A stretch of DNA of 64,000 nt from Leucoraja ocellata (lineage: Eukaryota). The position numbers and the translations under genes were made by a program. This document shows, piece after piece, positions 1 through 64,000 of this stretch. How positions within the stretch are numbered: position 1 is the first letter of the stretch; the number at the start of each line of letters is the position of its first letter. The notes beneath the pieces are model-generated. The model saw nothing but the letters and a program-made list of their open reading frames with translations, searched no databases and was not told the DNA's origin. The DNA lies in the NCBI GenBank assembly GCA_036785375.1, contig JAWMAR010000238.1:3348001-3412000 (forward strand), read 5' to 3'.

Positions 1-110
1 GCTGAGGACTCTTCTTCAGACTGAAGGGTCTTGATCCAAAATGTCAACCATTCCTTCTATCCAGAGATGCTGCCTGTCCCGCTGAGTTACTCCAGCATTT
101 TGTGTCTATA
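1..110 (+). mobile_element. Penelope-like terminal-repeat (pLTR) fragment
   Basis: Contains ctgaagggtcttgatccaaaatgtc...gatgctgcctgtcccgctgagttactccagcattttgtgtct, the same module that follows the GIY-YIG ORF at 63250-63445. Confidence 0.7.
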
Positions 111-640
111 GAAGTTGGGGTATTATGTTACAGTCATACAAGACATTGGTGAGACTGCATTTGGAATGCTGTGTTCAGTTTTGGTCACCTTGCTAGAGGA
201 AGGATGCTGTTCAGCTGGAAAGAGTATAGAGAAGATTTACAAGGATGTTGCCTGGACTTCAGGGCCTTAACTATAGGAAGAGGATGGGCAAGTTAGGATT
301 GTATTACTTGGAGCACGTGAGGCTGAGGGGTGATCTTATAGGGCGTAGATGTCTATAATATCATGAGGGGAACGCAGAGAAACTTTCACCCAGAGTAGGA
401 GAATTAAGAACCATAGGACATAGGTCTAAGGTGAGATGGGGAAAATTTAATTGGAACCTGAAGGGCAAATTTATCACATGGTATAAGGAACAAGCTGCTA
501 GAGGAGGTACTGAAGTTGAGGCGAACAAAAGGATATGGGCCAAAGACAGGCAGGTGGGACTAGTATAGATGGGGCATCTTGGTCGGCATGGGCTAGTTGG
601 GCTGAAGGGCCTGTTTCTGTGCTGTATGACTATGACTCAG
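111..640 (+). mobile_element. CR1-type LINE 3' fragment (degenerate)
   Basis: LVRxHLExCVQFWSP-like codons (ttggtgagactgcatttggaatgctgtgttcagttttggtcacc) and a CR1 3' tail (gggctgaagggcctgtttctgtgctgtatgactatgact). Confidence 0.8.
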
Positions 641-980
641 TAACATTGTTTGCAAAATGATCTGGAGAAATAAATACCTGGTGATTTTAAGGGATTTGGA
701 TATATCATCTCTGCTGGCAGTCCTGTGTCATAGATTTGGAGCACTGCATTGGACAAAGCTTTGTCTTTCACCTATGATGCATTAGAAGTAAGGGCAGTGC
801 TGATAAAAGATGAAGATGATAAGCACATAACAGAGAATGAAGGAATGCCAGGAATACTGATTAAGTATTTTATCTTGGTATTCACATGGAGATTGAATTT
901 TGTCTTCTACCAATACAAAGATAATAGAGGATGGAACAAAAAGAATAAAATAAGTTACTCCTGCAACTGGAATATTACCA

Positions 981-1695
981 GGGGGCGCCACACTATGGCT
1001 GCCTCACCAACAGTCTGTTTTTGTCTTTTTCATTCTTTGTGTTTTCAGTTTGTTGTAAAATGTATGTTTTAGCTTATCTTTAGTTTTTGTATTTGTAGGG
1101 GCTGGTGGGGGGTGGGGGAAACTTTTTTTTAATCTCTTTCCTTGACTGAGATGCGACTTTTTCTGTGTCATATCTCCGCCTGCACTGCATTCTAACATTG
1201 TGGAGCTGGCGGCCTCTCGTTTGGGACTTCTTGAGCTCCAAAACCGCGGAGCCTGTGGACTTTCACATCTTGGAGCGGGAGATCCCTTTGCCAGAGGTCG
1301 GCCTTTAGTGTTCCAGCCTGCGGGAGCTGCGGACTTTAACATCGTGAAGCTCGCTGTCCCTGTTTAGGGACCAATTTTGGGAACTCCAAGCCGCAGGAAA
1401 TTCGACCGTCCCGATGCGGGAGGTTAGATCGTCCCGACGTGGGAGCTCAATCACCAGCTGCAGATGGTTCGACTCCCCCGACCGCGGGAGGAAAGGAGGA
1501 AAGAAGATAAGACTTTACTGCCTTCAGACACAGTGGGAATGTGGAGGAGCCACTGTGATGGATGTTTATGTCAAATTTCTATGCAGTTGTTGGTCGTTGC
1601 TTTTTTGGTATGACTGCGTGGCAAATCAAATTCCTCGTATGTTGCAAAACAGACTTGGCTAATAAATTACGATTATGATTATTATTATTATGATA
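981..1695 (+). mobile_element. GC-rich SINE-like non-autonomous retroelement, copy 1
   Basis: Shares its 5' block, gcggactttaacatc motif and core (ccttc..cacagtg..gaatg..tggatgttta) with 2661-3523 and 37936-38856. Ends in aataaa plus an (ATT)n tail. Confidence 0.7.
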
Positions 1696-3699: not shown

Positions 3700-4560
3700 T
3701 AAAGCATACCGGAGGTGGCTACTAAAGGCCTTATCCGAGTTTTCGGAGAATGAAAATAAATATGTATAAAAGATGCATGCGGATCATTAAATAACGAAGG
3801 TTTGTGGGACTCAATATAGAAAATACAGTGCTGATGGAAGTTGTGAGGTACTGAAGGAAGCAGAGACTCTTTCAACATCTTTGAATATGGAGGTAGTGCC
3901 AGAGGAAGAAAGGATTATCAGCTTAAAATTTGATCTCACAAAGAGATAAAAGGATAAACTGGGAGCTATAGACCAGTCAGTCCAATGTTGCTAATGATAA
4001 AGATTTCTAAAGACAATATGGAAAAAAGTTAATACTCACTTAGAAAGACAGATTAGCTGAAGGCATTCTATATCATTTTATGAAAGGCAAGTAGAAAGTT
4101 TAATAGAGTGGTTTGGGGAAATGAAGGAATATGTTGGCAAGGTTCAGTGAATATTGTGCATATTGCATTTGAAAACGTTGTTGACAAGATGCTGCTAGAA
4201 AGGTTTAATTAAATGAAAGTGAATAGCACTGGAAGGATAGGAAATTGCCTTATAGACAAGCGGCAGGTGAATGGTGCTTATTTTTGTCGATATGTAAATA
4301 ATCCTGCATTGTCTTGAGTGCACAGAGAACCAGTGAAAGGATCAGTATATTTAAAGTACAGTATATGAACATGGGAACAAAATCTGTAGGAAACAGCAAA
4401 CTGGAAACCATTGTTAATTGGGAAGCAGAAGAGTTGGGACATTGATAGTGTGAAAGACACATTGTCTTTTTTTCATGGTGAGAGAATCAAGAACTAGGTT
4501 TAAGGTGAGAGTAGTCAGATTTCATAGAGCAAAGAGATCATGATGAATTGAAATAGAGGT
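3700..4560 (+). mobile_element. Old, heavily decayed CR1-type RT fragment
   Basis: Remnants of YRPVS (tatagaccagtcagt), DFxKAFDK and WI.NWL motifs, with many stops and indels. Confidence 0.5.
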
Positions 4561-5156
4561 TGAAATGACTGAGGATGAGAAATCATTTGGTGCAGAGAAT
4601 GAAGAAAGCATTGTTGATGTTTGGGTGAAGTCATGGTGCTTGGTGGAAGTTGCACATAAACATTTTGAAAGAGATAATTTTACATGATCTCTCCTTCCAC
4701 TGCACTATTAATGGATAAGACCACTCTGATCACTTCCTGTGTCAGTCACCTTCCAATTCCACCTTCTTTGTACTAAATTCATTTTGGATAAAGCTTTCTT
4801 CCAAGTCACATGTTGGCACTATCGAATACCAGTTGATAAGGTTTAAGTCGTTTGTACATCACACTGTTTCCAATGTTATTAAATTGCTCATATCTTCACA
4901 TCCACTTTGTGGATCTTGACTCCTTTAACTCGATTGCCCTTTCTTGTAATGCTCTGTCTTCTGCTATCTGGTGTGCCCTTACCTCAATCACTATCCTGGA
5001 CGTGCATACATACATCACCATATCTCACCAGATCTGGTTAAGCCACATCAATTACTAAATCAATGGAAATATTGTAACCTTATGGTACAGAGAGGAAGTC
5101 ATTCATATCCAAATATCTGTGATTTTCCAGCTCTCCCAACGTCCGTATAAATACGT

Positions 5157-5320
5157 GTAGGAAAGAACTGCAGATGCTGGTTTACACCAAAGATAGGCAC
5201 AAAATGCTGGAGTAACTCAGAGGGTCAGGCAGCATCTCTGAAGAAAAGGGATAGGTGACATTTTGGCACAACACTCTTCTTCAGATTGAGAGTCAAGGGA
5301 GAGGGAGACTAAGGGAGTCA
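5157..5320 (-). mobile_element. Penelope-like pLTR fragment
   Basis: gtaggaaagaactgcagatgctgg...gagtaactcag...gcagcatctc...ttcttcaga module. Confidence 0.7.
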
Positions 5321-5589
5321 TGCATTGTCTTGAGAGCTTTACATTTCTTCCTGTAGTTTGGTGAGTGGCAGCCTCAATACAGCATTTTCATTGTGGCCTA
5401 AGTAGTATATTGTACAATTCCAGCTAATCTCTCTGATCTTGTATTCAATGCTTCGATTGTTCTCGACAAGTACCCTGTTTGCCTTATTTTTCACCATTAA
5501 TTTTTTTGCTATCTTTTGATCAATGAGAAAGTAGCAAAGGGAATGGCAAATATAATTTAACTCAGGCAAGTGTGAAGTGAACCATTTTT

Positions 5590-5705
5590 TGACAGGACAT
5601 ACACAGGAAGATTATGCAAACTCCACAGGGACAGCGCCTGAGGTCCAGGTTTGAAACCAGGTCTCTGGCATTGTGAAATAATGTCTCCACATGCTGCACT
5701 GCTAT
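5590..5705 (-). mobile_element. Decayed tRNA-derived SINE head (HE1/V-SINE-like)
   Basis: gcaaactccaca and ggtttgaaaccagg (B-box-like on the minus strand) are typical of elasmobranch V-SINEs. Confidence 0.5.
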
Positions 5706-6960
5706 ACAACAGAATGTGTTTGATTTCATTCCTCACTTCATCCTTCTTGAATGCCTCCTGTATCATTGTCACTGATTTACATTGACATCACTACTTTCAG
5801 TCTGTTTAGTGCTGAAAAAGTGATGGTACACATATGCATTCGTAGTTCATGGTATCTTGCTTATTGTGTGGCGAGATTTGATTCTGAAGTTTTTCATTGC
5901 ACAAATTGAGGGATTTATTATAAAACATTTCAGTAGTTTTGATAAATGTTGTAAGTATGAGATGGTATTGATGAATTTAATTTTGGGACAGATTTTTTGA
6001 GTACCTTATAGGTTGCTACCCATAAGTATTTAATTAGGAGACCTCAGTGCAAGGGAACTGTTGTAACAGCAAGCATTTAATTGAATGGTTCCAAACCTTT
6101 TTTGAGCTTAAATGTATTTAAAATCATACTGAACAATTAAAATGTAAAGCAAACTAAACTTGAGACTAATAAGAGAGATAACAGCATTTTTGCTGGTGTT
6201 TGGAGATTCAAGTTAAATACATTAAATTCTTATCCAAGCTAAATAAATTAAATTCTTAGATTCACTTTGCTTTAAAATGGATGAACAAAAGCAATTAGCA
6301 GTTGATAGGACAAATCTGAATAGAACCGTTGATACCCATTTGTTCAAAGTCATGTTATCAGAGACTGGCTTTCAGTCAGCTGCTTGTAGGATTATAGTTA
6401 CAATTTATTCTGTACTATATTTCCTAAAGATCTATGTGCATTTACAATGAAGGCTTTCCTAAAATTCTGACCCATGACATGTACTTTGAATGGCAAAAAT
6501 CGTCATAGTTTGAAAAACAGTCGTATTTGAGAATTTGACTGCTGAGTGTTGAGGAATAATAACCAAGGGGTTCCGTATGACATTTAACAAGTAGTCTACT
6601 AAAGCCATCTGAAGAAAAACAGAATAATGAGACAGACTTGGCTTAACGTTCAGTAGAAAGTCTTATTCACAGACATTCATACATCTTTGAAAATATGAAT
6701 TTAAATGTAAAAGAATGCAAACAACCTAATAAAAGCCTTTTATCAATTGTTAAGATCACTGGCATTGTTTATCCAGAACAATGACAATGACCAAGGCAAT
6801 TGCTATTCGTGTATCATACATCAACTATTAGCTATGGACTTCAAAAGTGGCAAAGAGGTGACAGAGGAACAATAATCCAAATTACATTCGGGTAGACTGT
6901 TGTAATGCAGGTAACATGTGCACATGGACTCATAGACTGCTATTTGTTGGCCTGCAGTCA

Positions 6961-8449: not shown

Positions 8450-8639
8450 TCCTTGCATAAGTCTGTCATTATTTGTGACCACAACAGTATAAGGATAGTG
8501 AAAAGTGCTTGCGTCATATTGAGAAGAAATTTATATATTAGCAACAACCATTTTAGCAGGTAGAGGACGAATTGTACAAGAATTCCGTATGAGCCATGCC
8601 AAATCAGATATGGAAATTTTATCCAATTTTGCTTTTTCG

Positions 8640-8845
8640 CTCTGCCACAGAAGGCAGTTGAGGCCAATTCACTGGATGTTTTCAAGAGAGAGTTAGATTT
8701 AGCTCTTAGAGCTAAGGGAATCAAGGGATATGGGGGAAAAGCAGGAACGGGGTACTGATTCTAGATGATCAGCCATGATCATTAACTGGCTCGAAGGGTT
8801 GAATGGCCTACTCCTTCCTGTACCTATTTTCTATGTTTCTATGTT
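8640..8845 (+). mobile_element. CR1-type LINE 3' end
   Basis: ctctgccacagaaggcagttgaggcc...gatgatcagccatgatc...(ttctatgt)n tail. Confidence 0.85.
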
Positions 8846-9181
8846 TTATGTCTGTGGGACTATTATTTGTTGCGTGGATATCTGTATAAATCTGAAGGAT
8901 ATACTGTTTCATTTATAAAATACAAACTGCATTAGTAGTACTTCATTTAAACAATGAGCAGCAATGAGACAGGGACATTGTAATCAAGCCATTTAAAATC
9001 TGTTGCTCACTGCATTAATGCAAATTGTGCTGCCAACTGCACAAGGAAGCACTGTACTGAATACATCACAATGTGATTTAACTTTTGCCAATGATTATCT
9101 GAGAATGTACTGTTTCAAATTAATTTTAACTGTTTGCCTCATAACTGGCAAGAACATATATTTTTTAATTTTATATTTCAG

Positions 9182-11384: not shown

Positions 11385-11409
<25 letters not shown>
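11385..11409. repeat. (GA)n microsatellite
   Basis: Directly visible gagagaga run. Confidence 0.9.
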
Positions 11410-14703: not shown

Positions 14704-15090
14704 GTAGGCACAAGGGAACTGCAGATATTGATTTACAAAAAAAATAATATGAAGTGTTGGAGTAACTCAGCAGGTCAAGCAGCATCTCTGGAGAACATAC
14801 ATAGGCAACATTTCGGGTTGGGACCCGTCTTCAGACTGATTGCAAAGGCCAGAGATGAAAAGATAAGAAGTGTGAGACAAGGATAGAAGTACGATAGAAG
14901 AGGTGGCAAAACAGTTGCCTAGTCTGCACTTCAATCACTGATGTAAAGGAGGCCACATGAGGTGCACCAAATGGATTAGATTGGAAGGATTCATTAACCA
15001 TGTTCCTTTCACACAACTCTTTATGTCTAAATAGAAAGAGCAGGTTAAAATGGTCTGTCCCTCTGTCAATCAGTGGATGGGGAAACCCGA
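14704..15090 (-). mobile_element. Penelope-like fragment (pLTR plus decayed ORF remnant)
   Basis: pLTR module with minus-strand CTGAAGACGGGTCCCAACCCGAAATGTT core at about 14807-14834. Confidence 0.6.
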
Positions 15091-25407: not shown

Positions 25408-25742
25408 TTAGGAAAGAACTGCAGATGCTGGTTTAAATCGAAGCTAGACACAAAATGCTGGAGTAACTCCACGGGACGGGCAGCATATTTGGAGACAAAG
25501 AATGGATGACGTTTCGGGTCGAGATCATTCTTCAACTGATCAGTCTGAAGAAGGGTCTCGACCCGAAATGTCACTCATTCCTTCTCTCAAGAGATGCTGC
25601 CTGTCCCGTTGAGTTACTCCAGCATTTTGTGTCTACCTTCGATTTACCTGAACAGTCTGCAGAAGGGTCGCGACCCAAAACGTCATTCATTCTTTCTCTC
25701 CAGTGATGCGGCTTGTCCCACTGAATCATTCCAGCATTTTAC
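25408..25742. mobile_element. Penelope-derived palindromic pLTR pair plus a third tandem copy
   Basis: About 25430-25535 is the reverse complement of 25541-25646, centred on ctgatcag. A third direct copy starts near 25653. Confidence 0.8.
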
Positions 25743-26904
25743 TCTTCTTACTAAAATAGGCAGATTTCCTTCGAAATTTCCAAATTAGACTTCAGCACGG
25801 TCATTATTATCATGTAAATATTCCAATTTTTAGTTTATTTTCCTTAAAATGTTATTTCTCCTATTGTAAGGTTTCTTCATTGCAATGGACTGATCAGCAC
25901 ATAATGCTGATGCCTCAATTAATTAATTCCAGAGAGGGGAATTCCGCACTCCATAGATCACTACATCTTTTTGGCAGCTTTGTTTGAGGTCAGTGGTGAG
26001 CATCATCACCTCGTTTCTCACTACAGAATACAGGCTAATAAAGTATATTACAGAAACTCCTTTGAATAATTAAATTTATGTTTGCATATTTGGCATTAAA
26101 AAATTGATGAAGTTGGACTTAGTTGCTGCACACGAAACAGCTTCCAGCAGCATAAAGAGAACGTTAGAAGCAAAGCAGTAAATTCTACCTGGCAAGTTTA
26201 CGATGGCAAGATAATGAAATAAACAGGTGCACTGAATTTTAGGAATAACAATAAATGTTGTCAGGCTATTATTAAAAACTTATTTAAAACCCATCTCCTT
26301 TTCATTCACCTTCTTTTTCCTCTTGTTTTAAAACAGTCCTAAATCCGTAAATGCAGTACAAGATTAGTTTAATTCATGAATTAGATTGAATTACAATTCC
26401 AGCACTTAATTCAGGATACTTATTTTAATGCTGTGCGCAAACACACCAAAGAGCACATCATTTAAAGAAGTGCAATATCTGTTTAAGTATTTCCTCGATG
26501 GTTGAAAGCATAAGAAAGGAAACCTGTTTTCTTGCTTGCAAACAGAACTGTGGAATATGTTTCTAGAATTGATGACCTGAATTTTGGAGAAAGTGGCCAA
26601 CTAAGGTGAGGGTGAAATGATGCTAATTTTAGTCCACTGACCAACAGAAGAATGACCAATGGTGATGGCATGATCTGTTCCAGGAGATCAGGATTATCTA
26701 AGATGAAATCAGTGCAATCAGAGTGTCATAGATGTCGGTGGAAATCACAAGTGCAGAAGTGATAGTTAACTCTTGCATTAACCGCACTTTTGTCTCAACA
26801 ATACGTCATAGAAGCATGCAGCATGGAAACAGGCAACTGCCAACTCATCCTTTCCGACCAAGGTGCCCCATCTAAGCTAGACCCATTTAGAATATAGTCG
26901 TAGC

Positions 26905-33113: not shown

Positions 33114-35379
33114 TCTCTATAAATAAAATTGCATATATAGAATGTGCACATATGTAGAATCGATAAATGATATAGTAATAAGCTATATATTACTAGGATT
33201 GCAAAGTAGACAGAGAAGATCAAGGGCAGCATTTCTTTCAATTGTATTCATACACAGAAAAACTAATGGATGTATTGGACCTGATTGGACTAATGGTCAG
33301 CTGACTATTACATAGACACCAGCCAGATAAGCTGCAATGATCCGACCTCCCCCCACACTGCCGTCTCACCACTAAGTCCAGAGTTATCCTGTAAAGTGCC
33401 AAGTGAGGGATTGATACATTTTACATTTTGTATCTGGCTCTTTCAGCTTTAAGCCAACTATAGTTGGCACGTCTAGCTCAGCCCTACTTAAATGTGGCTG
33501 GCAATCTTTGTTTAAAACGATAAGGGTAATGTTTTATGACTCTTATAACAGTCCCTGAGCTCGTGCCAACCCCACGTGCAATCGACCAGAGAGCACTGTC
33601 AACATTCCCCATTTTACGCTGCTTAACTCACTCTTGGCAGCAAGAACCCTGCCAGGATTCCACTGTGTCTGACCTTCAATCAATACAACTGGATGAGTTC
33701 TTGATTCACACAATAAGTGAGGAGGGAGTGGGGGGGGGGGGGGGTGGAAGTATCCCACTATTGCAAAGGTCTGCCTAAAGACAGACGATCTGGACCAATA
33801 ATTGAGTTGATAATTTGCTATGTTGTTCAGTCAATTGTAAATTTAAACTGTATTTTATACTTAACTGGTTATTATTCATTAATTAATATTCTGTACTCCA
33901 TATTTGGTGAGACTGAGTTCTTGACCTAGTTGTTTCAGACCCGTCTACCTCTGGTACCTAATACAATGATCATGAATCCAGTATTTAAGTCCAATTTAAT
34001 TTGAAGGCATGGATGAAAGTCAAACCAGAGGGTTGGAAGCTGGCAGTTTATCGGAAAAATCAACCTGAAATAACTACAATCTAAACAGCCCCAGGGAACA
34101 TGTCAACTCTCTATGCAGTTGGCCACGTGTGTTGTCGTCTGGGAGAGGATGTCCATGTGAAATGAGTCTCCAGTGCTGCTTAAAAAGAGTGGTGGTAATG
34201 ACCTTGAAGGCTGCATGAGCAAGTTAGAATGTGCAGCAAAAGCAGTTTGTCCAGTTTTCTGTCCCATGTAAAGTCACCCTCAATTTCAGCAGAGGTAGTA
34301 AAGGAGCAAATCCAAAGCACACAAATAGATGAACAATTAATTTAAACAGTCACTGAACACAGGACTCCACCGCAAGCAATCGACCGTGGAACATCAACAG
34401 CATGTCCAACTTTACATTGCATGGCTTGCTCGTGGCTGCAGGAATCCTGCCAGCATACCACCACGGCTTACGTGACCTTCAATCCAGGCATTCAAATTGT
34501 TGATTAAAATGGCATGGAATAGGAGGGGTATTTAGGAGGGGAGCTCTGTCTCCAGTTGGACAATCCCATGGTCGACTTTGCCAATGCTTTCTTGTTGTCT
34601 ATAAATGTCAAATTGAATATTTAATTTGGCTTAAATTCACACTCACTGTAGAAAAGTTACTCCAGCATTTTTTGTCTACCTTCAATCTAATCCAGCATCT
34701 GCAGTTCTTTCCTACATATCCCCTGTTAATTTTCCAGCTGGCTGATTCTTCATGGCATGCACTTTATCTAATCTCCCCAAGTACTATTAGCCCTGGTCAG
34801 GATCAAAAGCCCTGTGAAATCAGCTTCCCTTGCATAAATGGATGACTGCTCCATCCTCATCACCTCACCCCACACCAGCATCCTCCAATAAAAGTAACAC
34901 ATCAGTCATGTCATGTTCAAGATCTGTGATTTAACTCTTTCCTAATAGCAACCAATACGTAACAAGAGTAAAATATGTATTATTTTCTTCAATCATTGGT
35001 AATTCAAAAATGTGTTTGACTGTTATTTCTCTTACACTAGTGTTTTGCACTTCACTGTGAAAAATGTCCCAAAACAAATCAATAGATGTTATCCAGCTCA
35101 GGAAGGGCCCACTGGCAGTTCAGTGGAGCAGTTGTATGCTGCTACCTTATCCACCTTTAGATCAATGCATGGGCTTCTGCATCAGCATTGCAGATGAAGG
35201 TTGCCCAGAGCATCATTGATCTGAGTCAGGGTCCATAGGCTTTTCTGTGGTGAATGTCTTTGGCTCAAATTAAATATTCAATATATCACCCTTGATCTTT
35301 AGGATTATAGGTTATCATGAGTATTGTGCCAATTCATTCCATTTTATTTGCTCCCAAAACTATTAATGGGACTTGCAAT

Positions 35380-36020
35380 CAGGAAGACAAAAATTATGAT
35401 GTCTTAATTGCAAAAGGGTTCGACAACAAGTGTAGCAATATTGTGCTCCAATTATTTAGAGCTCCAAAGATACTGCATCTAGAATATTATGCACCAGGAC
35501 AGTCTCCCTATCTCAGAAAGGGTACATATGCAAAAGGAGAAGTGCAGCAAATATTCACCATTCTTCGGATGGGAAGATAGACACTAAGTGCTGGAATAAC
35601 TCAGCGAGTCAGGCAGCATCTCTGGAGAGAAGTATCTTGGGATGGGAAGTTTGTCATCTGAGGAGGAATTTGAGCAGGATAAGCCTTTATTCTCAAGGTT
35701 AGAATGAAGGACAATCACATTGAATCATACAAAATCTCAAGGGGCTAAGCTGCAGAGGTGATAATTCCCCTGCGTGGGATTTCCAGAACCAGTGGTCAAC
35801 AAATAAATTAAGAAGCTGATCATTCTTCACCAGACAGCTGAAGAGACTCAGTTGCTGAGTATATTCAACACGGAGTTCAATACATTTTTAATTTAAGAAA
35901 TTAGGGGAATGGAGAGATATATAATTAGTTCTGGAAAGTAGCCTCGAGGTAATAGATCAGCCAGATCTTATTAAATGGCAGAGTCTATGTGAAGGACTGA
36001 ATATCTACTTCTGCTTTTAT
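35380..36020 (+). mobile_element. Old decayed CR1 3' fragment with a short pLTR-derived insert (about 35577-35632)
   Basis: LIAKGF..VLQLFRA..LHLEYY..SPYLRK remnants. tcttcggatgggaag / tcttgggatgggaag direct repeat flanks the insert. Confidence 0.55.
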
Positions 36021-38900: not shown

Positions 38901-39290
38901 GTGTAGGAAAGAACTGCAGATGTTGGTTTAAATCGAAGGTAGACACAAAATGCTGGAGTAACTCAGTGGGACGGGCAGCAACTCTGTAGAGAAGGAATGG
39001 GTGACGTTTCGGGTCGAGACCCTTCTTCAGCCTGATGTCAGGGGAGTGGGCGGGACAGAGATAGAATGTAGTCGGAGACGTTAAGACTGGTGGGAGAACT
39101 GGGAAGGGAGAGGGGATAGAGAGAGAGAGGGAAAGCAATGGCTATTTGAAGTTAGAGAAGTCAATGTTCACACCACTGGGGTGTAGGCTACCCAAGCGAA
39201 ATATGAGGTGCTGTTCCTCCAATTTGCGCTGGGCCTCACTCTGACAATGGAGGAGACCCAGGTCAGAAAGGTCAGATTGGAAATGGGAAA
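38901..39290 (-). mobile_element. Penelope-like element 3' fragment (GIY-YIG C-terminus + pLTR)
   Basis: Minus strand encodes LEEQHLIFRLGSLHP..NIDFSNFK, as in ORF 63445-63768. Intact core CTGAAGAAGGGTCTCGACCCGAAACGTC at 39003-39030. Confidence 0.85.
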
Positions 39291-39594
39291 CACACCATTT
39301 CTGATTTAATTCTTAGTATCACACACCATTTCCGATATTATTACTTCCGTCTCTCTGCCCTCTAAAGCTCCAACCTTATCGTTCCCCAGCCCTGCACGGC
39401 TCGACTTTATCTTCTGCCCAAAATCCACCAACAGAACTGTCCTGGCAGATCCATTGTTTCTGCTTGTTCATGTCCTACCGAATTAATTTCCACGTACCTC
39501 AACTCCATCCTATCCCACCTGGTCCAATCCCTCCCTACCTATGTCCAAGACACCTCACACACTCTTCGTCTCTTCAATTACTTTTGTTTTCCAG

Positions 39595-39809
39595 GCACTG
39601 AAATTTATAGCAAGCTGGTGCAGGGATTTTACAGTGCCATTTTCAATGCTCCACAACTTTGCAAACAAAAGCAGCAGTCTGTGCTTGAGGAAGAGCAAGT
39701 CGAAGACTTGAAGGCCAAGGGCCTTGAAACAAATGTTGAAGATCAATGGGAGGCAGCGGCAATGAAGGCTGCTGGGACTGTTCATGCCATAAATGATTTT
39801 CTGATTTAA
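39595..39809 (+). CDS. Candidate alternative terminal exon of PPARGC1A (unverified)
   Basis: Long pyrimidine tract ending cttttgttttccag|GC. Read in phase 1 after exon 12 it gives G-TEIYSKLVQGFYSAIFNAPQLCKQKQQSVLEEEQVEDLKAKGLETNVEDQWEAAAMKAAGTVHAINDFLI*. AATAAA at 40080-40085. Confidence 0.25.
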
Positions 39810-44899: not shown

Positions 44900-46115
44900 T
44901 GGAGTGGATTTGGAGAGGATGTTTCCACTAGTGGGAGAGTCTAGGACCAGTGGCCACAGCCTCAGAATTAAAAGACATTCCTTTAGGAAGGAGATGAGCA
45001 GGAATTTCTTAAGTCAGAGGGTGGTGAACAGTGGAATTCATTGCCACAGACAGCTGTGGAGGTCAGGTCAATGGACATTTTTCAGGAGGAGATTGATAGA
45101 TTCTTGATTGATACGGGTGTCAGAGGTAATGGGGAGAAGCCAGGAGAATGGGTTTGAGAGGGAAAGATAGAGTCATAGAGTGATACAGTATGGAAACATG
45201 CCCTTCGGCCCAGCATGTCCCATCTGCACTAGTCCCACCTGCCCACGTTTGATCCATATCCCTCCGAACCTGTCCTACCCATGTACCTGTCTAACTGTTT
45301 CTTAAATGTTGTGATAGTCCCTGCCTTAACTACCTCCTCTGACAGCTTGTTCCATATACCTACCACCCTTTGTATGAAACACATACCCCACAGATTCCTA
45401 TTAAATCTTTTGCCCTTCACCTTAAACTTATGTCCTCTGCTCCTCGATTCACTTACTCTGGGCAAAAGACTCAACCATATCTATTCAAATCATGATTTTA
45501 TACACCTCTATTAGACCATCCCTCATCGTCCTGTGCTTCATGAAATCCCAGCCTACTCAACCTCTCCCTATAGCTCTGGCCCTCTAGTCCTGGCAACATC
45601 CTCATAAATCTTCACCTTTCCAGTTTGATGACATCTTTCCTATAACATGGTGCCCAGAACAGAATACAATGCTCTGAATGCGGCCTCACCAACTTCTTAT
45701 GCAACTGCAACATGACCTCCCAACTTCTGTACTCAGCCTGACCCGCTGAGTTACTCCAGCACTCTGTGAAATGTCACAGACCAGGGCAAGATTAGCAAGT
45801 TTGCTGATGATACAGAAGTGAGTGGTTTTGCAGATAGTGAAGATGGCTGTGAAAGATTGCAGCAGGATCTGGATCAATTAGCCAGGTGGGCAGACAATGG
45901 TTGATGGTTGCATGGTTCCTTGAAGGTCGTGTCACAGGTATATCAGGTGGTCAAAAAGTATTTTGGCACTTTGGCCCTCATCAGTCAGAGTATTGAGTAT
46001 AGAAGTTGGGAAGTCATGCTGCAGTTGTATAAGACGTTGGTGAGACCACATTTAGAATATTGTGTTCAGTTCTGGGCACCATGTTATAGGAAAGATGTCA
46101 AACTGAAAAGAGTAC
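44900..46115. mobile_element. Cluster of CR1 fragments (+ 44900-45170, - 45170-45730, + 45780-46115)
   Basis: ORFs MDLERMFPLVGESRTSGHSL, GRWD-type tail, SKFADDT and LVRPHLEYCVQFWAP. Confidence 0.85.
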
Positions 46116-46150
46116 AGAGATCCCCATCCTGGATCAGTCCAATCAGGGTT

Positions 46151-46368
46151 TAAGAGGGAACTGCAGATGCTGGAGAATCGAAGGTTACACAAAAAAGCTG
46201 GAGAAACTCAGCGGGTGCAGCAGCATCTATGGAGCGAAGGAAATAGGCAACGTTTCGGGCAGAAACCCTTCTTCTGAAGAAGGGTTTCGGCCCGAAACGT
46301 TGCCTATTTCCTTCGCTCCATAGATGCTGCTGCACCCGCTGAGTTTCTCCAGCTTTTTTGTGTAACCT
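46151..46368. mobile_element. Palindromic Penelope-derived mini-element with 17-bp TSD, inserted in a Rex1 fragment
   Basis: Near-perfect inverted arms centred near 46275. TSD TCAGTCCAATCAGGGTT at 46134-46150 and 46369-46385. Flanks encode Rex1-like NDCTSTDTTVKLLKFADDTTLIGLIQDGD on the minus strand. Confidence 0.88.
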
Positions 46369-47304
46369 TCAGTCCAATCAGGGTTGTGTCATCCGCAAAC
46401 TTGAGAAGCTTGACAGTGGTGTCTGTGGAGGTGCAGTCATTGCGTGTGAAGTGGTGATCGGAGTGGGGTGGGTGTAGAAGGGCCCAGTCTTTGCAGACTG
46501 AGGTCAGGCTGTGAGTGGGTGTGAAGTGTTTGTTGGGGTGGGAAAGTGGGTCTTTTCATACTGGAGTCTTGCCTTAAGTAGGTGTGAAGTGGTGAATGGG
46601 AAGGAGAGGGTGCAGGGGTCTGGCTGTGTTTGTTGGGGAGGGGGTACCAGGGTTACGTTTCTAATTTTCAAGCCTGCAGTAAAACTCATTCAGGTAGATC
46701 ATCAGCTGATGATTGTCCATGGAGCGGGGGGCTTTCTTCTTATAGCTGGTGATTTCTTGCAAGCCCTTTCAAACTGAAGAAAAGTCATTAGCTGAGAACT
46801 TACTCCTCAATTTCTCAGAGTACCTTTCCTTGGCAGCTCTGATTCCTCTTCTCAGCTCTTTATCGATTAGGCTATCTTTTAACTGTTTAACGCTTAGGCT
46901 ATCGGCTTGACGCATATTTGCCCCCAACACCCCTCCCCCCCCACTGATCTCAAAATTGAAATGTTACATCTGTATATAATGATCCCATTAAAATGTGTAT
47001 TTATGTCACTAACTATGGAATTCATATTTTTCAGTATTGTTATCAAGGAAAAGAAAGCAGTTCCAATTGTTTGATATTATTTGATATTGTTTAATATTAT
47101 TCATATGTAGGAAAAAATATAATAGCTCTAAAACCTACCTTAATTTTGCAGTCTCACTCAAGATAATCCCCCTTTCCCTCTCCCCTCCCCCATCTCTCTC
47201 TCCTCTCCCTTCCCCTCTCTCTCTCCCCCTCTCACTTTCCCCCTGCCCCCTCTCACATACCCCCCTCTTCCTTGCGGGGAGGGGGGGGTCGAAGATGAAG
47301 GTTG

Positions 47305-48189: not shown

Positions 48190-48650
48190 CGCTTTCCCCT
48201 TCCTCATGCCTTCCTCATTCTATCTCTGACACCTCTCTCCCCTCTCTCAATCTCTTTGTCTCCATCACGGGGGGGGGGCGCAGATTATCAACCGACATCT
48301 ACTACAAACCCACTGACTCCCACAGCTACTTTACTACACTTCCTCCCACCGCAGCCCTTGAGGAAGAACATTCTTGCTATTGAGGGAGTGCAGCGTAGGT
48401 TTACAAGGTTAATTCCCGGGATAGCGGGTCTGTCATATGCTGAGAGAATGAAGCAGCTGGGCTTATACACTCTGGAGTTTAGAAGGATGAGAGGTTATCT
48501 TCTGAAGAAGGTTATCAGTCTGAAGAAGGGTTTAGGCCCGAAACGTTACCTATTTCCTTCGCTCCATAGATGCTGCTGCACCTGCTGAGTTTCTCCAGCA
48601 TTTTTGTGTACCTTCGATTTTCCAGCATCTGCAGTTCCTTCTTGAACACT
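48190..48650 (+). mobile_element. Chimera: Penelope RT fragment + CR1 fragment + Penelope pLTR
   Basis: LSTDIYYKPTDSHSY (PLE RT C-terminal motif) at about 48285-48330; LRKNILAIEGVQRRFTRLIPG (CR1) at about 48358-48500; pLTR with hammerhead-like core at 48520-48547. Confidence 0.8.
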
Positions 48651-50335: not shown

Positions 50336-50473
50336 TTAATATTGGCTTTTATAATAACATCATAAGCTAGATAACCAAGAATGGTTTTGGCTTCTCATTT
50401 GGGGGCTATATTTGAATATCCTGGCCACAGAATGGGGCCCTGAACGGCATGGTGGTGCAGCGGTAGAGTTGCT

Positions 50474-50654
50474 NNNNNNNNNNNNNNNNNNNNNNNNNNN
50501 NNNNNNNNNNNNNNNNNNNNNNNNNNNNNNNNNNNNNNNNNNNNNNNNNNNNNNNNNNNNNNNNNNNNNNNNNNNNNNNNNNNNNNNNNNNNNNNNNNNN
50601 NNNNNNNNNNNNNNNNNNNNNNNNNNNNNNNNNNNNNNNNNNNNNNNNNNNNNN
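50474..50654. other. Assembly gap (~181 N)
   Basis: Run of N inside the SINE. Confidence 0.99.
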
Positions 50655-50715
50655 CGTCACACAGTCCAAAAACATACAGTTTTGTAGGTTAATTGGGTTT
50701 GGTAAAAATTGTAAA

Positions 50716-52112: not shown

Positions 52113-53239
52113 TTGCACCTGCAAATTGGCCGTAGTGTGTAGGATAGTGTTAGTGTACGGGGATCGCTGGTTGACACAGACTCGGTGGGCCGAAGGGCCT
52201 GTTTGCACATTTTATCTCTAAACTAAATTAAAGTAAACTATACCAAAATGCTATTATTTAAACCACTGAATCACTCAAGCTCCTACACCTCATGTTATAC
52301 TTCAAATCTTCCATAAAATTCATGTTTGACATTCAGGTTTACGGATCCCCATGACACTGTGTTATTTTTTTATTTCTTCTGAATTCCCTTTCGACACACA
52401 ACCATCAATTATTAATCATCATGCTCCCTATCGAAGCTGATGTGTGGCCATTCCCTCAATTTCACTTGCAATATTTCACAATCAATATTTCTTTATTTGT
52501 ATTATACCACGTAGTCATCTGCGTCTTATCAGATATCACCTTGGTGCAGTAACCTAAATCTTCATGTTTTTATTTTATAATTCACATTGATGGAATAAAG
52601 AATTCAGTCTACTTTTCGCATTGGAATAATGGCCATCACAGTTGAACGCTGATTGATCTACTTTTGCTTTATTTGCATAACTATTCAGCGACATGAACAC
52701 AGATGGTGGCAGATTGCCTACAGCATCTATAAGAGTATCATTAAAATGTGCTTTTGCAATAAAATCGGGAAACAAGTTCTAGATACATTTCTGCATCTAT
52801 CAAGCCTTGTGCATGATTCTGCATTGATGAGGTAAATCGACTCTAGTTCCCTTAAAATGATTTACGTTGTTTTTTTAATGTCACTTTTCCCCTTCCGAGT
52901 TCCTTTTATAGTACATTTCATTGATACAGAATTTGAGCCAAGGAAAAAACAACACTATTTCAGCTGCAGCACGGAGATAAATCCATTTACAGAAACAAAT
53001 TATTGCAGCACCAAAACTAACACTTACATTCTGTGTACATGTGATGAAGAAATGATGATAATCGAGAAAAAAAGATGCACATGAACGTATGCAGGGATCA
53101 CCCATCATCTAAAGATCATATGAAATATTTGAGTCCATCATACAAAACGGCAAATAAATGAAACCAATTCCTCAAGAGAAATTGAGAAAGAAGATTGGTG
53201 AATTTTGTATAATTGACGAAAAATCAAATTATGATACGT

Positions 53240-53415
53240 TAGACACAAAATACTGTAGTAGCTCAGCGGAATAGGCAGCATCTCTGGGGAGAAGGAATGG
53301 TGATGTTTTGGGCTGAGACCCTTCTTCAGACTGAGAGTCAGGGGAGAGAGAGACATATAGATATGGAAGGGTAAGGTGTGAAAATGAGAGATCAAAGTGG
53401 AGGTGGATCAAGGAA
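53240..53415 (-). mobile_element. Penelope-like pLTR fragment
   Basis: agacacaaaatactg...gcagcatctc...gagacccttcttcagactga. Confidence 0.75.
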
Positions 53416-56700: not shown

Positions 56701-57990
56701 AGATGGGAATAAATTGAACACATCTCAAAATCTATTCCTTAACTATGGTTTAATAATAGCAAAAAAATTAATACTTAAATTTTGGAAGGGTACATCAATA
56801 CCAACGCTTAAAATGTGGATTGCAAGTATGTTGGACACCGCTCATCTTGAGGAAATGCGATTCCTCCTAATGGATAAATCAGACCAATTCATAACGAGTT
56901 GGTCTCCATTCGTCGTTTTTTTGGAATCATATGGTGCAACACAATTGTAAAAAATAACTGTTTCAGGACTGGACGAGGGTTGGTCAAGATTATAAATAAT
57001 GATCTCCTTTTCTTTTTTATTTTATTTTCTTTTCTCTATTTTCTCTCTCAACTTTCTTCATTTACTCGTTTTCTTTCTTCACACACTATATATTTCAAAT
57101 CTTTCTATCCTTTACTATCTAACTTCTTTTTCTTATTCTAATCTTTTTTCAATGTAACAAAAAAAAAAAAGAAGTTGTACATAAAATGTATTATGAAAAT
57201 ATATATTAGGCACTTTGGTGCCATATGACTGTACTTACTTCTAATAAAATTTAAAAAAATTTAAAAAAAGAAGGTCTGTAGGAGGCGCATTCAGTTGGAT
57301 CTTTCCCTTTTTTGGCGATAAGAGTAATACAGACTTCGGCAAAAGATGGAGGAAGAGAACCTTGTCTGTAGGATTCAGATAGAACGGAACACAACTGTGG
57401 GGAAAGGAGTAGAGAGAACTTAAAAAAAAACTCTGCCAGGAAGCCGTCAGGGCCCGGACATTTGCCTGATTGCATTGAGGAAATGGCTGAAGCTATTTCT
57501 GCCTGTGATATAGGTTCATCCAATCTTTCCCTAAAATTTAATGAGAGTTTGGGATTATTTAGACTGCTCAGGAAGTCATGCATTACCTTATGATCCGGTT
57601 GAGATTCTGAAGTATAAAGCTGGGAATAAAGGTCTCTGAAAGCGTCATTAATTTGCAAGTGATCCGAAGTGGACTGGCCATTAGGCATGCGGATTTTAGA
57701 AATATTCTCTCGCTTTAGCACCTTTAAGTTGATTTGCAAGTAATTTGTCTGTTTTATCTCCATATGTATAAAACATGGCTTTATTTTTTTTAAGTATGTG
57801 TTCAATTGAGTGAGTAGTGAGTAGGTCAAATTCGGTTTTGTGTTCCAATCGTCTTTTATAAAGAGTTGGATTTTGAGTTTGCGCTTATTGCTTGTCAATT
57901 TCTCCAATTTGATGAGCAAGATCTAAACGCTCTTTATTGGATTTCCGCTTCATTTGAGCAGTGTAAGATATGATCTTCCCCCTAAGGTAA
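53731..57990 (-). mobile_element. L1-clade LINE (5'-truncated ORF2, frameshifted), split by a nested L1
   Basis: SMQSGKCPGPDGF and ECASYRP (57251-57919); GTRQGCPLSP and SLYADDLLLF (55526-55804); GGLALPNF.FYYWAA; Cys-rich C..C....HMYWSCP. Poly-T (minus-strand tail) at about 53731. Confidence 0.92.
56131..57270 (+). mobile_element. AT-rich L1-clade LINE 3' portion inserted antisense in the host L1
   Basis: IQFKIVHRLY, CDKC...HSLVSC..L..FW and WSPF C-terminus (ORF 56510-56950). T-rich 3' UTR, AATAAA and A-rich tail at about 57243-57269. Confidence 0.88.
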
Positions 57991-58199
57991 ATTTTTATTA
58001 CTCAATCCACATAAAACATTAAAAAAAAACGTAAACATTACAATTTTGTTATTTTGGGGAGCTTGCTGTGTTCACATTGAGTGCTGCTTTTCATATTTTT
58101 CAAAGGTGACTGCACTTAAAAAAGTATTATATTGGCTGGAAAGCACTTTGAGATGTCATAACAGGATGAATTACCATATACAGATACATGCCTTTGTAT

Positions 58200-59105
58200 C
58201 TTAGGAAGGAAATACATAGACAACATTTTGGGTTATGACTCTTCTTCAGACTGCTGGACGAGAGAAGAAAGTTGATAAAAAGTTGATAGAAAGAGGTGAG
58301 AGGAAGGGATAAGGCAAAAGCTAGCTAGTGATAGGTGAATCCGTGGGGAGAGGTTTAATTCACCTTCCCAGTCCCAAACGGACCTGTGTTGTCCTCTGCC
58401 TCCTCCACTGCCAGAGTGAGGCCATGTGCAGTCTGGATAAACAAGGCCTCATATTCTGTATAGGTGGCCTACAAACCAATGGCATGAACATTGAATTCTC
58501 TTATTCCAAACACCCCCCTCCTTCTTGGAATAGGAATAGGAATACTTTATTGTCACATGTGACTAGGCACAGAGAGTATTTGCTTGCATACACAATGTAT
58601 AGAAATAGCAGCCACTTACGGCGCTGGCAAAGTTACAAAGCATGCCGGCTCTCGCGTTTGTCCCCACCCCCCCCCCCCCCCACCGCCACAGCAGTTCCCC
58701 TACACCGGGTCCCCATTGTCCTTTGTCCCCCCCCTCCCCCCCCCCCCCCCCCCACCGCCACAGCAGTTCCCCTACACCGGGTCCCCATTGTCCTTTTTCC
58801 CCTCCCTCCCCCCCCCCCCCCCCCACCGCCACAGCAGTTCCCCTACACCGGGTCCCCATTGTCCTTTGTCCCCCCCCCCCCCACCACCACAGCAGTTCCC
58901 CTACACCGGGTACCCATTGTCCTTTGTCCCCCCCCATTGCCCATTGTTCATCCCCTCTCCCCTCACGGTGCCCCCCCTCCCCTCACATCTTTCCATGTAC
59001 CTAGTTCTCCTCCCCACCCTGCCCCCATCTGACCTTATTTTCCACTCCTTCCTGCATTTCTCCAGCATTTTGTTTGTTGCTCAAGATTCCACCAGCTCTG
59101 TCTTT
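58200..59105 (+). mobile_element. Decayed Penelope-like fragment (inverted 5' pLTR, GIY-YIG tail) with nested insert
   Basis: LIFCIGGLQTNGMNIEFS resembles the PLE C-terminus. Inverted core at about 58220-58252; pLTR end at about 59055-59105. Confidence 0.6.
58665..58940. repeat. Minisatellite: 4 copies of CACCGCCACAGCAGTTCCCCTACACCGGGTCCCCATTGTCCTTTGT separated by poly-C
   Basis: Directly visible. It lies inside a minus-strand element with a gacaataaa/(TATTCC)n tail at about 58527-58565. Confidence 0.9.
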
Positions 59106-60779: not shown

Positions 60780-60980
60780 AGCTAGCTCTCCTTAGATCCC
60801 ATGTGATCTAACCTCCCCGAGCAGCCTGCCATGAGGAACCTTGTCAAATGCCTTGCTGAAATCCATAAATACAACATCAACAGCTCTGCCCTCTTCAACC
60901 TTTTTTGTCACATCTTGAAAAACTCAATCAGATATGATCTCCTATGTACAAAACCATGCTGACTATCCCTAATGAACCAT
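60780..60980 (-). mobile_element. Decayed CR1 RT fragment
   Basis: DSQHGFVHRRSYLIEFF and DVVFMDFSKAFDKVPHGRL on the minus strand. Confidence 0.75.
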
Positions 60981-63251
60981 GCCCATCTATATGCATGTAC
61001 AACTGCAGCAAAGAATGTGCAGCATGTGCAGCAAAGAGTTAGGAGATACAAGGAATGCATTTCATTGGGAATCATACAGATCCCCTTTTGGAGCTTGATC
61101 CTGAGTGTAAATCGCTCTAATGCTGTTTCACATTGGAGTTTGGCTGATATGGGCATTGGCAATAACACAAAATCAGGTTTCAGCCGCAACAGATTTAAGT
61201 ACAAACTAGTTTATTGGGAATGGAACCACAAATTAATAGGTGACCATCACTTTGATGAGGAAAATGATACTGGAGTGTTAAAGAGTTGTGTGGAAGCAGG
61301 AGACCAGCAGGTTTAGTCCACAGCTAGAGGTCTTTGACAGCAGCTCATTCAACATTACCTCTGGTGAGCAATCCTTGATCTTGTATACTTGTCACATGTC
61401 AGGCAGTGTAAACAGCTATTATACTCTGCACACTCTCATTTCAACAAGGTTCATAATATTGCTCTCTTAAATAAATAGCAACAATTTGTTAGTCCAGGTA
61501 TTAACCCATAATACCTCTCTTATCCGGTCTTTTAAGTTGTTGTTCCCGCTAGATGCCTCCTGATGGCCTCAGCTTGTGCAATGCAAGGAGACTGCAGTTC
61601 AGATGGGGAAGTGGTTTCAGTAGAGGCAAGATAAGACAACCAATGGGCTGTAATGATGAAGCCAGAAAGAGCCCCTCTGGCCCTCCTGCATCCTCATTAT
61701 AAAAAATGAAAAAACAGTCTCCAGGAGTCCATAATCCATCACTGATTAGTTGTTTGGCCTTACTATATTTTGGACCATGAACAGGATTTGAATCACTGAT
61801 TACCACAATCACAATACTTTGGGAGTGAGGTAGATGGAAATGTCAAACAATGAGCAACTCATCTGAAAATGGAATGGATTCCCTCAATGTAAAGTTTACA
61901 CCTAAAACACAAGCATCAAAGTGATCAATTCCTTTCCTTTTATACAGGATGATACTGATGGACACATCCACCTTGGCTGAGAGAGCATTTGGCATTAGTG
62001 AACCACAACCAATTGCTAAATGCTATTAAGTTTATGTTTCAAAATCCAGGCCAGTTTAGCCAGGGACCTTCATGGTTTGAGTTTACAGTAATTCGTCTTC
62101 TGTTTCATGAATAAGATTTAGAAAAAGAGAAAGCTCACTATTTATTATTTTGTTTATTGACAAATGTAGAGAATATATATTATACTGTGTACACCTCTAT
62201 TTTATAAAATTTGCTTTTTATTGGTTCAAATCCAATGCCACAATTTGAGAGATAACTTTACGAGTTTGCTGTCTGCACATGGAGAGGAAAATTCTCCTGA
62301 CAGCACGTAAAACATCCAAATATCCAGTCCAAGACTCACTGTGTTTATTCCCTGGTAATATAATATTTCTGGGAATTGGTCAGAAAAACACAAACACAAG
62401 ATCAAAGGGCATGTAAGTTCAGTTTGGATATACAGCTGTTGGTGCTGAACCAAAGGGACCATCCACTGTTAAGACAAAAAATACTGCAGGAAGTATTTAA
62501 ATAAACATTAGAAAGTATAAAAGTACACCTTTTTTGTGAACTAAATATATGTTTTCACTTCTTCTGTCTTAACCATAATGTAAAAAGTTAGGCTAATGAG
62601 AAAACAAGAAGTAGTGGAAATATCTTGTATGTATTTGGCTGTACCTATAGAAACTGCTGGATAGGACTGTTCTGGATGATCATAATGGGCTTCATCTTTG
62701 CTTTAATAAAAAGGGTAGATGAATTCAGCAAAAATTTGAAATCAATCAGATTTTCAAAATTCTCCTGGTAATTAGATTATATGGGAATGAAAACAACATT
62801 TGCACAGAATGGATTAAACAAAGGGGATATAATAAACACAAAGACATTTTGCATTCTGATGATTTTTAAAATTTTATAAACCTCACTTAGGCAAACTACA
62901 TGTTTCTGTCAACAAAATGATGTTCAAGCAGGGGGAAGCTAAGCAATAAATTACCACTATGATGTGCACTGGCATGACCAAATGAAAATAAAAGATGCTG
63001 GTGGCTGCAAATTCCAAAAGCAAACAATGCATTTAAGGTGTTATTATCTGTAGACGTAGCAAAAATGCCTGAATCAAAGGAACTCCTTTTGATGTTGTAA
63101 GGCAAGAAAGTCACCTTGCCGGTTTGAATTGTGGAACTCACATGAAGTGCTTATGCCTAAACGCAAATAAGTTAATGTTTTTACTATCCATGTCTGGAAT
63201 GCAGTTCTGGGATGCTGGTGTTTTACACAAAACAGCACCGTGTGAAATGTT

Positions 63252-64000
63252 TAAGAAGGAACTGCAGATGCTGGAAAATGCTGAAGAAACTCAGCGGTTG
63301 AGGCAGCATCTATGGAGCGAAGGAAATAGGCAACGTTTCGGGTCGTAGCCATTCTTCAGACTGATATGAGGGTGGGGGGTGAGAAGAAAGGAAGAGGTGG
63401 AGCCAGAGGGCTGAAGGAGAGCTGAGAAGGGGAGAAAGTAGGGACTACCTGAAATTAGAGAAGTCAATGTTCATACCGCTGGGGTGCAAACTGCCCAAGC
63501 GAAATATGAGGTGCTGCTCCTCCAATTTATGGTGGTCCTCACTCTGGCCATGGAGGAGGCCCAGGACAGAAAGGTCGGATTCGGAATGGGAGGGGGAGTT
63601 GAAGTGCTGAGCCACCGGGAGATCAGGTTGGTTATTGCGAACCGAGCGGAGGTGTTCGGCGAAGCGATCGCCAAGCCTACGCTTGGTCTCACCGATGTAG
63701 AGCAGCTGACATCTAGAGGGTGGATGCAATAAATGAGTTTGGAGGAGTTGCAGGTGAATCTCTGCCACACCTAGAACGACTGCTTGGGTCCTTGAATGGA
63801 GTCAAGGGGGAGGTGAAGCGACAAGTGTAGCATTTCCTGCGGTTGCAAGGGAAAGTGCCCGGAGAGGGGGTGGTACAGGTGGGAAGGGACGAATTGACCA
63901 GGGAGTTACGGAGGGAGTGATCTCTGTGGAAAGCAGGCAGGGGAGGAGATGGGAAGATGTGGCAAGTGGTGGGATCACGTTGGAGGTGGCGAAAATGTCG
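63252..64000 (-). mobile_element. Penelope-like element: GIY-YIG endonuclease C-terminus + pLTR (continues beyond window)
   Basis: IYCI...LLYIGETKRRLGDRFAEHLRSV...PVAQHFNSPSH...LEEQHLIFRLGSLHPSGMNIDFS with a frameshift. Hammerhead-like core about 90 nt after the stop (63332-63359). Confidence 0.9.

Follow-up and report, generated by a model that had tools for sequence, protein, structure and literature searches.

Minimal hammerhead motifs dispersed through a Leucoraja ocellata contig as probable insertion stubs of an endonuclease-bearing Penelope-like element

Background

Minimal hammerhead ribozymes of metazoan Penelope-like elements (PLEs) are described in PMC4209133 with a CUGANGA/GAAA core, a G10.1-C11.1 pair and a palindromic 15.2-16.2 stem without loop III; the extra nucleotide separating position 9 from 10.1 is a published trait of the class. 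They lie in the pseudo-long terminal repeats (pLTRs) of PLEs and occur as dispersed single copies tied to truncated elements, with neighbours on the opposite strand. We analyzed 64,000 nucleotides (nt) of the skate Leucoraja ocellata (assembly GCA_036785375.1, contig JAWMAR010000238.1, positions 3,348,001 to 3,412,000; hereafter the window), in which an earlier reading of the letters alone (the sequence-only reading) had noted fourteen hammerhead-like motifs. All of the above features recur here. Helix II has 4 bp versus 6–8 in the examples of PMC4209133, and helix I has 2 bp in the source lineage, compared with 4–5 in S. mansoni and 2 in D. virilis. Unlike those examples, the motifs here form one low-diversity family without covariation above shuffles, and the extrapolated number of cores, ~0.9 million, exceeds the 4,000–9,000 descriptor matches given for coelacanth and Xenopus, although the counting differs.

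Endonuclease-bearing (EN+) PLEs of the Neptune and Nematis types (PMC3846280; bioRxiv 10.1101/2021.04.23.441226) resemble the element described here in having one open reading frame (ORF) bearing reverse transcriptase (RT) and C-terminal GIY-YIG nuclease, a CX2-5CxxC linker, CCHH residues, partial tandems, an inverted 5'-truncated copy, a one-sided 30–40-nt tail, target duplications and an initiator-like word in the pLTR. Unlike them, the element here has a long ORF, and most insertions are 100–140 nt long, running from the ribozyme edge to two 3' ends. For the Anolis element PAc, of the Poseidon clade, PMC11167929 reports that both DNA strands are cut and extended, that uncleaved RNA is the substrate, and that the ribozyme cleaves only with protein and is dispensable for insertion in vitro. 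Two internal RT starts (putative here) at least ~110 nt past the hammerhead, which define the tail, and the lack of RNA ends at the cut site are common to PAc and the present case. The PAc ORF starts inside the hammerhead, whereas here it starts ~165 nt after C3, the core position that is 0 on our scale (the predicted cut falls between +27 and +28), so that the short copies, or stubs, are non-coding. PAc is also described without the zinc linker that the element here has.

Non-LTR retrozymes (bioRxiv 10.64898/2026.07.22.740005) are likewise short, non-coding, PLE-derived and dispersed as monomers with a type I hammerhead. They are built of tandem units, each with a complete ribozyme, whereas the stubs here are solitary or head-to-head and have no lineage of their own. 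The same preprint reports PLE-derived ribozyme repeats in one chondrichthyan. A literature search, with most subscription papers, repeat databases and supplements outside its scope, returned no paper with the skate family, or piled-up 5' ends at the hammerhead of a PLE, as its subject; the supplements of PMC4209133 (fish alignments) and of bioRxiv 10.64898/2026.07.22.740005 (one chondrichthyan) may already include the family.

The motif type, extra A, dispersed single copies and inverted layout are thus all published, and the ribozyme finding itself is ordinary. The value of the present case lies in its scale and sharpness: about one fragment per 2 kb, with fixed 3' ends and with 5' ends that pile up where the ribozyme begins but not at the cut site. 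The account that we consider probable is that the motifs are the minimal hammerhead of the pLTR of an endonuclease-bearing PLE, and that the copies are 100–140-nt run-off insertion stubs.

Results

Hammerhead motifs are real and abundant

All fourteen motifs are real: 13 were recovered at their noted coordinates by a mismatch search of the 64-kb window, and the fourteenth (C3 at 21), which has lost three core bases, by blastn and nhmmer. A sequence-independent structural descriptor (core, stem II of at least 3 bp, GAAA, paired 15.2/16.2 and UH) matched five times in the window versus once across 20 pooled shuffles, and 41 times in 579,600 bases of sampled DNA versus 0 in each of five shuffles. 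The reversed sequence gave no nhmmer match. This excess over shuffles and the empty reversed search indicate that the motifs do not arise by chance. None of the 46 descriptor matches belonged to another hammerhead family. An Rfam scan of the window at E values up to 10 returned no hammerhead family, its only yields being hairpin-driven microRNA matches on the 46.2-kb palindrome. All 11 core bases are kept in 6 of the 13 ungapped window copies, and three (39030, 46274 and 48520) combine them with a 4-bp stem II and ACGT; the 39030 copy has no stem I pair. Behind each motif the copies share a body of ~90 nt, which in some is followed by a further 38 nt. As had been noted, the motifs at 63332 and 39003 lie on the coding strand, ~90–115 nt past the GIY-YIG stop. 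The Penelope origin, minimal type I anatomy and weak stem I proposed by the sequence-only reading are borne out, and we share its caution that activity is uncertain.

Abundance was estimated from 98 stretches, each of 10 kb and placed at round-number coordinates of the larger contigs (979,000 nt, <0.03% of the 3.4-Gb genome). A profile of the window copies gave 472 matches, or 1 per 2.07 kb, and core-spanning matches numbered 264 (1 per 3.7 kb), which extrapolates to ~1.7 million fragments and ~0.9 million cores genome-wide. With 18 matches and 14 cores in 64 kb, the window has a typical density. The figure of roughly one copy per 5 kb given earlier is the genome-wide norm and not a local peculiarity. 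Coverage of the ORF in the same sample is 22 at the C-terminus and falls steadily to 0 before amino acid (aa) 500, which indicates the usual 5' truncation, and the nuclease end lies within 500 nt upstream in only 25 of the 291 matches that reach the core.

A young intact element carries the motif at the pLTR position

Intact relatives were sought with a peptide from the RT region. Of 15,439 candidates, 150 matches were scored; many of these lie in open frames of 1,233 codons, and some recur with a 3,946-nt period. Each unit comprises a hammerhead, a 5' untranslated region (UTR) of ~165 nt, an ATG, a 1,221-aa ORF, a pyrimidine-rich 3' UTR of ~115 nt and the next hammerhead. In tandem and partial-tandem copies the hammerhead thus stands on both sides of the ORF, which is the pLTR position. 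Adjacent tandem units differ at 1 of 3,946 bases, most copies of the unit exceed 99% similarity, and the best matches across 18 distinct retrieved places are 98–100% alike; this near-identity suggests that the source lineage is young and probably active. Young stubs are in turn 96–100% identical to the intact unit.

Pfam matched RVT_1 (E 1.6e-06) and GIY-YIG (E 0.013) in the 1,221-aa ORF, both below the curated cut-offs, and no domain in the short nuclease remnants of the window. The translation shows DKG and YIDD motifs, a C-x4-C-x2-C linker ahead of the nuclease, a CxxC that falls between LIY and YIG, and a downstream pair of His (CCHH). By the linker and CCHH criteria of Craig et al. (bioRxiv 10.1101/2021.04.23.441226), these motifs would place the source element among EN+ PLEs of the Neptune or Nematis type. 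A Pro/Ala-rich stretch of ~350 aa precedes the RT in the intact ORF (L131:1587-5252) and makes it much longer than the 840-aa rotifer PLE ORFs given in PMC3846280; some copies carry longer frames still, up to 1,269 codons. In ORF-linked copies the 3' UTR between stop codon and hammerhead measures ~87–230 nt and is strongly divergent between lineages, with the motif and 5' UTR alike.

Copies end at fixed places and not at the cut site

Copy ends were mapped for the 234 of 472 matches that reached >=88% over >=45 nt when aligned with a panel made up of 35 natural copies; the other 238 were dropped. The 3' ends form two peaks ~38 nt apart, with 120 ends at +84..+96 and 52 at +125..+131, and both are common to stubs and full-length young copies. 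The stretch between them is the PLE tail. At the other side, 82 of 234 5' ends fall at -5..+4, compared with densities of 0.24 per nt upstream (-100..-11) and 1.52 per nt further in (+15..+39). No pile-up is seen at the cut site, where +27..+29 holds 7 of the 234 5' ends versus 4.6 expected locally. These end statistics, gathered in vivo, fit the sole in vitro study of a PLE as reported in PMC11167929. A small second 5' peak lies at +40..+45. Near it, core GAAGG (+5..+9) can pair with downstream CCTTC (+35..+40) in both main lineages, and this pairing may form an inhibitory hairpin.

In the first 58 stretches, 163 matches reach the edge: 67 adjoin unrelated flank, 46 mirror arms, 44 a 3' UTR and 6 a tandem copy. 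Matching fades gradually in the 67 copies with unrelated flank (T-1 0.75, G-2 0.61, A-3 0.49, C-4 0.34). The word TCAGTCT, whose A stands at -3, fits the initiator consensus YYANWYY. Initiator-like words are reported for the pLTRs of other PLEs (PMC3846280), and an internal promoter for D. virilis Penelope (PMC2377424). In RNA reads, loose ends occur before -6, -5, -3 and -2, where depth also changes in a step; the step again reflects the genomic boundary. For the most part these reads are passively transcribed genomic copies of both strands and are neutral on cleavage.

Head-to-head pairs suggest priming from both sides of a cut

Nearly a third of the matches (154 of 472) lie in 77 head-to-head pairs, where random placement gives 5.8 (maximum 13 in 200 trials). 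Among the 56 long-armed pairs the tail is present on one arm in 38, on both in 2 and on neither in 16, and a flank word of at least 8 nt is common to both sides in 34, versus 8 of 56 in the control. Long copies are inverted in like manner. The head-to-head layout has been published (PMC3846280; Craig et al., bioRxiv 10.1101/2021.04.23.441226). We infer that priming from both ends is preferable to self-priming as its source, because both strands are cut and extended in the experiments of PMC11167929.

Inserted copies decay neutrally, with weak signs of constraint on the source

The intact source unit has the core C3 U4 G5 A6 N7 G8 A9, G12 A13 A14, A15.1-U16.1 and H17, and ACGT without a loop; loop III has length 0 in 46 of 46 descriptor matches. 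Across 224 sampled copies the core base is the majority base at every column, but an intact core together with stem II and ACGT is found in only 40, the other 184 being broken. The unpaired A between 9 and 10.1 stands at 0.96, G10.1 at 0.91 and C11.1, which is CpG-eroded, at 0.78. CpG loss is similar inside and outside the motif (C11.1-G12 0.19/0.21; 15.2/16.2 0.21/0.25; loop II 0.16/0.20; downstream 0.17/0.18), and conservation within copies is 0.93 at core columns and 0.92 at monomorphic downstream columns. Inserted copies decay neutrally. The sequence-only reading had asked whether the core is better conserved than the rest of the repeat. Within copies it is not, as expected of dead copies; between source lineages it is, weakly.

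The evidence for the latter is that a second allele at >=10% occurs in 0 of 10 non-CpG core columns versus 19 of 54 downstream columns (p 0.026), and that identity in 19 ORF-linked copies is 0.84 for the motif and 0.79 downstream of it but 0.62 in the 3' UTR next to it. These values weakly suggest constraint on the core between source lineages. The common lineage variants are of tolerated kinds: loop II, U-A to U-G twice (closing pair and stem I) and C/U at H17. In a set of 25 copies (24 of the 26 ORF-linked copies, two deletion-bearing ones being omitted, plus the intact unit), 89.5% of helix I/II cells are paired; changes are one-sided, with a two-sided change at 1 pair, in a set of low power. 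The variation of stem II between GGGT/ACCC and GGGT/GCCC, which had been taken as keeping the pairing, is such a one-sided change and no covariation.

A splice acceptor (pyrimidine tract plus CAG) that would complete stem I, as in D. virilis, was considered and rejected as unsupported. The ORF ends at least 87 nt from the core in 25 of 25 ORF-linked sampled matches, a weak argument against splicing as PLEs may retain introns; no GT..AG joint occurs among the RNA joints listed (15 of 174 and 15 of 39); and by inspection, stem I would gain no length from a join at the donor-like words found at the stop codon. A sigma-70 promoter scan, a model unsuited to eukaryotic sequence, gave nothing.

Discussion

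How stubs would arise

In the mechanism that we favour, a promoter in the pLTR would start RNA at TCAGTCT, ~3 nt before the core, and a start so near the core would explain the 2-bp stem I. The protein would prime cDNA inside the 5' UTR at ~+90 or ~+128, the two 3' ends marking two RT start sites, and on uncleaved RNA the cDNA would run off the 5' end after 100–140 nt. Either one or both sides of the DNA cut would be primed; the arms of a palindrome would then be two cDNAs from the two sides of one cut, joined by microhomology. Longer copies would derive from read-through tandem or circular RNA. Under this model the ribozyme would work only in the source element, weakly, as an ACGU dimer or aided by protein, and any action would take place between the pLTR's two copies on a single long transcript. 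In the stubs it would be a passenger.

A more specific version, which we put forward tentatively, is that the roughly one million stubs are a fossil record of PLE replication, consisting of strong-stop-like cDNA made from the two internal RT starts to a capped 5' end 3 nt ahead of the core and inserted by a dimeric protein, either alone or as head-to-head pairs primed from two ends. As part of this reading, stem I would be held to 2 bp by the start site, and the ribozyme of the young lineage would have weakened further while that lineage spreads. If true, it would, together with the intact Neptune-type element, make PLE integration and the role of the hammerhead directly testable. The young intact element also offers a second biochemical model from another clade.

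Several observations weigh against a run-off origin of the stubs from a ribozyme-bearing pLTR. The 5' pile-up is broad (10 nt) and comes from the filtered 234 of 472 matches; it may be inflated by 3' UTR types outside the 35-copy panel, and an RT stall or microhomology at the TCAG-T-CTGA palindrome would yield an identical one. Four raw-read RNA runs show no site near the motif where molecules begin or end, although their libraries, fragmented oligo-dT and single-cell and possibly of another species, could hardly reveal a start site. PMC3846280 derives head-to-head junctions from self-priming on antisense RNA. As for the ribozyme, the ACGU duplex is computed at only -1.7 kcal/mol, 0 of 7 folds beat shuffles, and in the young lineage the triplet is GUU and stem II is predicted with a probability of 0.05, compared with 0.96 for the 39030 copy. 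The check for covariation in stem II that had been proposed found none above shuffles (408 of 500 as high), in 25 copies of a single 84%-identity family with little power. Part of the conservation may reflect promoter or RT-binding constraint, because the downstream 5' UTR is nearly as conserved as the motif. Finally, the lineage test given below is of modest power, as it uses decayed copies and 76 columns.

Alternative explanations

The alternative that survives best concerns activity only and is compatible with an origin of the stubs as run-off insertions. It holds that the motif is no longer a ribozyme here and is kept as a promoter or protein-binding sequence of hammerhead descent. We regard this as a real possibility, though less likely than not. 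In its favour are several traits of the currently young lineage, namely a stem I of 2 bp, a loop III of zero length, GUU and a fold predicted to be wrong, and also the lack of covariation above shuffles. Mutants of the hammerhead leave in vitro insertion of the Anolis element unaffected (PMC11167929), and 8 of 9 Xenopus retrozyme dimers stay uncleaved according to bioRxiv 10.64898/2026.07.22.740005. Set against this, the common differences between lineages all fall at tolerant places of the motif, and none on the ten non-CpG core bases.

According to the sequence-only reading, the copies are an amplified non-autonomous family. Stubs of this kind would be SINE-like (short interspersed nuclear element) or retrozyme-like, self-amplifying from an internal promoter and copied in trans by the PLE protein. 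Stubs are indeed about tenfold commoner than ORF-linked copies (25 of 291), and their ends are sharp and common across copies; non-autonomous PLE derivatives are known in vertebrates (bioRxiv 10.64898/2026.07.22.740005), and the internal promoter of D. virilis Penelope (PMC2377424) would fit. Against this, short copies formed no lineage apart. In a test of 216 copies, of which 156 were short and 60 carried 3' UTR, short copies had a short nearest neighbour in 0.693 of cases versus 0.719 with shuffled labels (p 0.64), and the distance from a short copy was 0.111 to the nearest long copy and 0.112 to the nearest size-matched short one. Young stubs match the intact unit at 96–100% identity, the palindrome junctions differ among copies, and broken cores are in the majority. 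No tandem array with an intact core in each unit occurs among the 23 same-strand neighbour pairs listed; the tandems of the window have broken or missing cores, and short copies are unclustered in the small share of the genome sampled. The absence of short-copy clustering and the identity between stubs and intact unit make the stubs look like repeated products of the masters of the long copies, and we consider a separate family unlikely.

Less likely still is that the stubs arise as we propose while their 5' pile-up marks no transcript start but a place on long read-through RNA, either the ribozyme fold or TCAG-T-CTGA, where the RT stalls or switches template: in several pairs the arms do meet exactly at TCAG(A/T)CTGA, or else at another short palindrome or microhomology, and the +40..+45 peak fits a GAAG/CTTC microhomology, but 67 of the 163 edge copies adjoin unrelated flank and not a mirror arm, an RT moving 3' to 5' on RNA would reach the fold first near +30, where no peak is seen, and the predicted folds are weak.

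By extrapolation (40/224 of 0.9 million), ~150,000 or more intact cores would be scattered genome-wide, many surely in introns. If scattered cores cleaved in trans, host RNA could be affected, which is purely hypothetical.

Copies and other features of the window

Table 1 Copies of the hammerhead-bearing family and other repeats along the window (core coordinates run from C3)
Positions	Strand	Feature	Details
1..109	+	Head-to-head junction	Decayed stub with C3 at 21, lacking three core bases; joint TCAG-A-CTGA to an internally deleted, inverted tailed arm that leaves the window leftward
5155..5290	-	Tailed stub	Core 5284-5257, G12>A, stem II decayed
7290-8210		Low-complexity CT-rich tract	
14715..14840	-	Stub	Core 14834-14807 with its core bases retained but ACGT disrupted
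18692-21400, 24018-24846, 29992-33121, 49759-52222, 54241-57922		LINE-type (long interspersed nuclear element) fragments	Endonuclease and RT matches
25409..25535	-	Head-to-head pair, tailed arm	Core 25535-25508, C3>T
25539..25646	+	Same pair, untailed arm	Core 25545-25572 with its core bases retained but ACGT disrupted
25652..25746	+	Second stub, in tandem	Core 25657-25684, A6>C and G12>A
34655..34716	+	3' fragment without core	Tailed
35574..35632	-	3' fragment without core	
38903..39288	-	5'-truncated PLE copy	GIY-YIG C-terminus 39288-39148, pyrimidine-rich 3' UTR, intact core 39030-39003 (GTC, stem I unpaired), part of 5' UTR, tail
39366..39641	+	Inverted RT fragment of the same PLE	aa 686-779 of intact ORF, 67% identity
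44487..44714	-	Stub, then two core-less tandem partial copies	Core 44713-44686, A15.1>C
45734..45774	+	3' fragment without core	
46134..46385	both	Young head-to-head insertion	- arm 46277-46145 with tail and core U4>A; + arm 46273-46368 without tail, core intact (GTT), 99% identical to intact unit; target site duplication of 17 nt (46134-46150, 46369-46385)
47301-47990		GC-rich minisatellite	10/20-nt period
48514..48650	+	Tailed stub	Core 48520-48547 intact, GTT, 2-bp stem I
50718-51877		Tandem duplication	580 nt
53237..53390	-	Copy with ~60 nt of 3' UTR	Core 53329-53302, G12>A
58198..58515	- (stub), + (remnant)	Decayed stub and GIY-YIG C-terminal remnant on opposite strand	Core 58249-58222, G12>A; remnant 58365-58515
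58660-58970		57-72-nt repeat	
63234..64000	-	3' part of a 1.2-kb 5'-truncated, frameshifted PLE copy	Begins ~480 nt outside the window; remnant of GIY-YIG at 63801-63445; core 63359-63332 with core bases retained and 2/4 stem II pairs; tail

Two further observations concern the surroundings of the copies. Exon-like frames resembling PPARGC1A lie at 9169-10254 (+) and ~16470-16550 (+), with one database lead (score 0.86); the 16.5-kb stretch reads like what we take to be the acidic/basic exon of that gene. Some stubs are thus probably in or near introns of a PPARGC1A-like gene. In addition, G000:C37:11105077-11128160 matches the window at 99–100% at both places tested and is probably a retained haplotype or a duplicate of this region.

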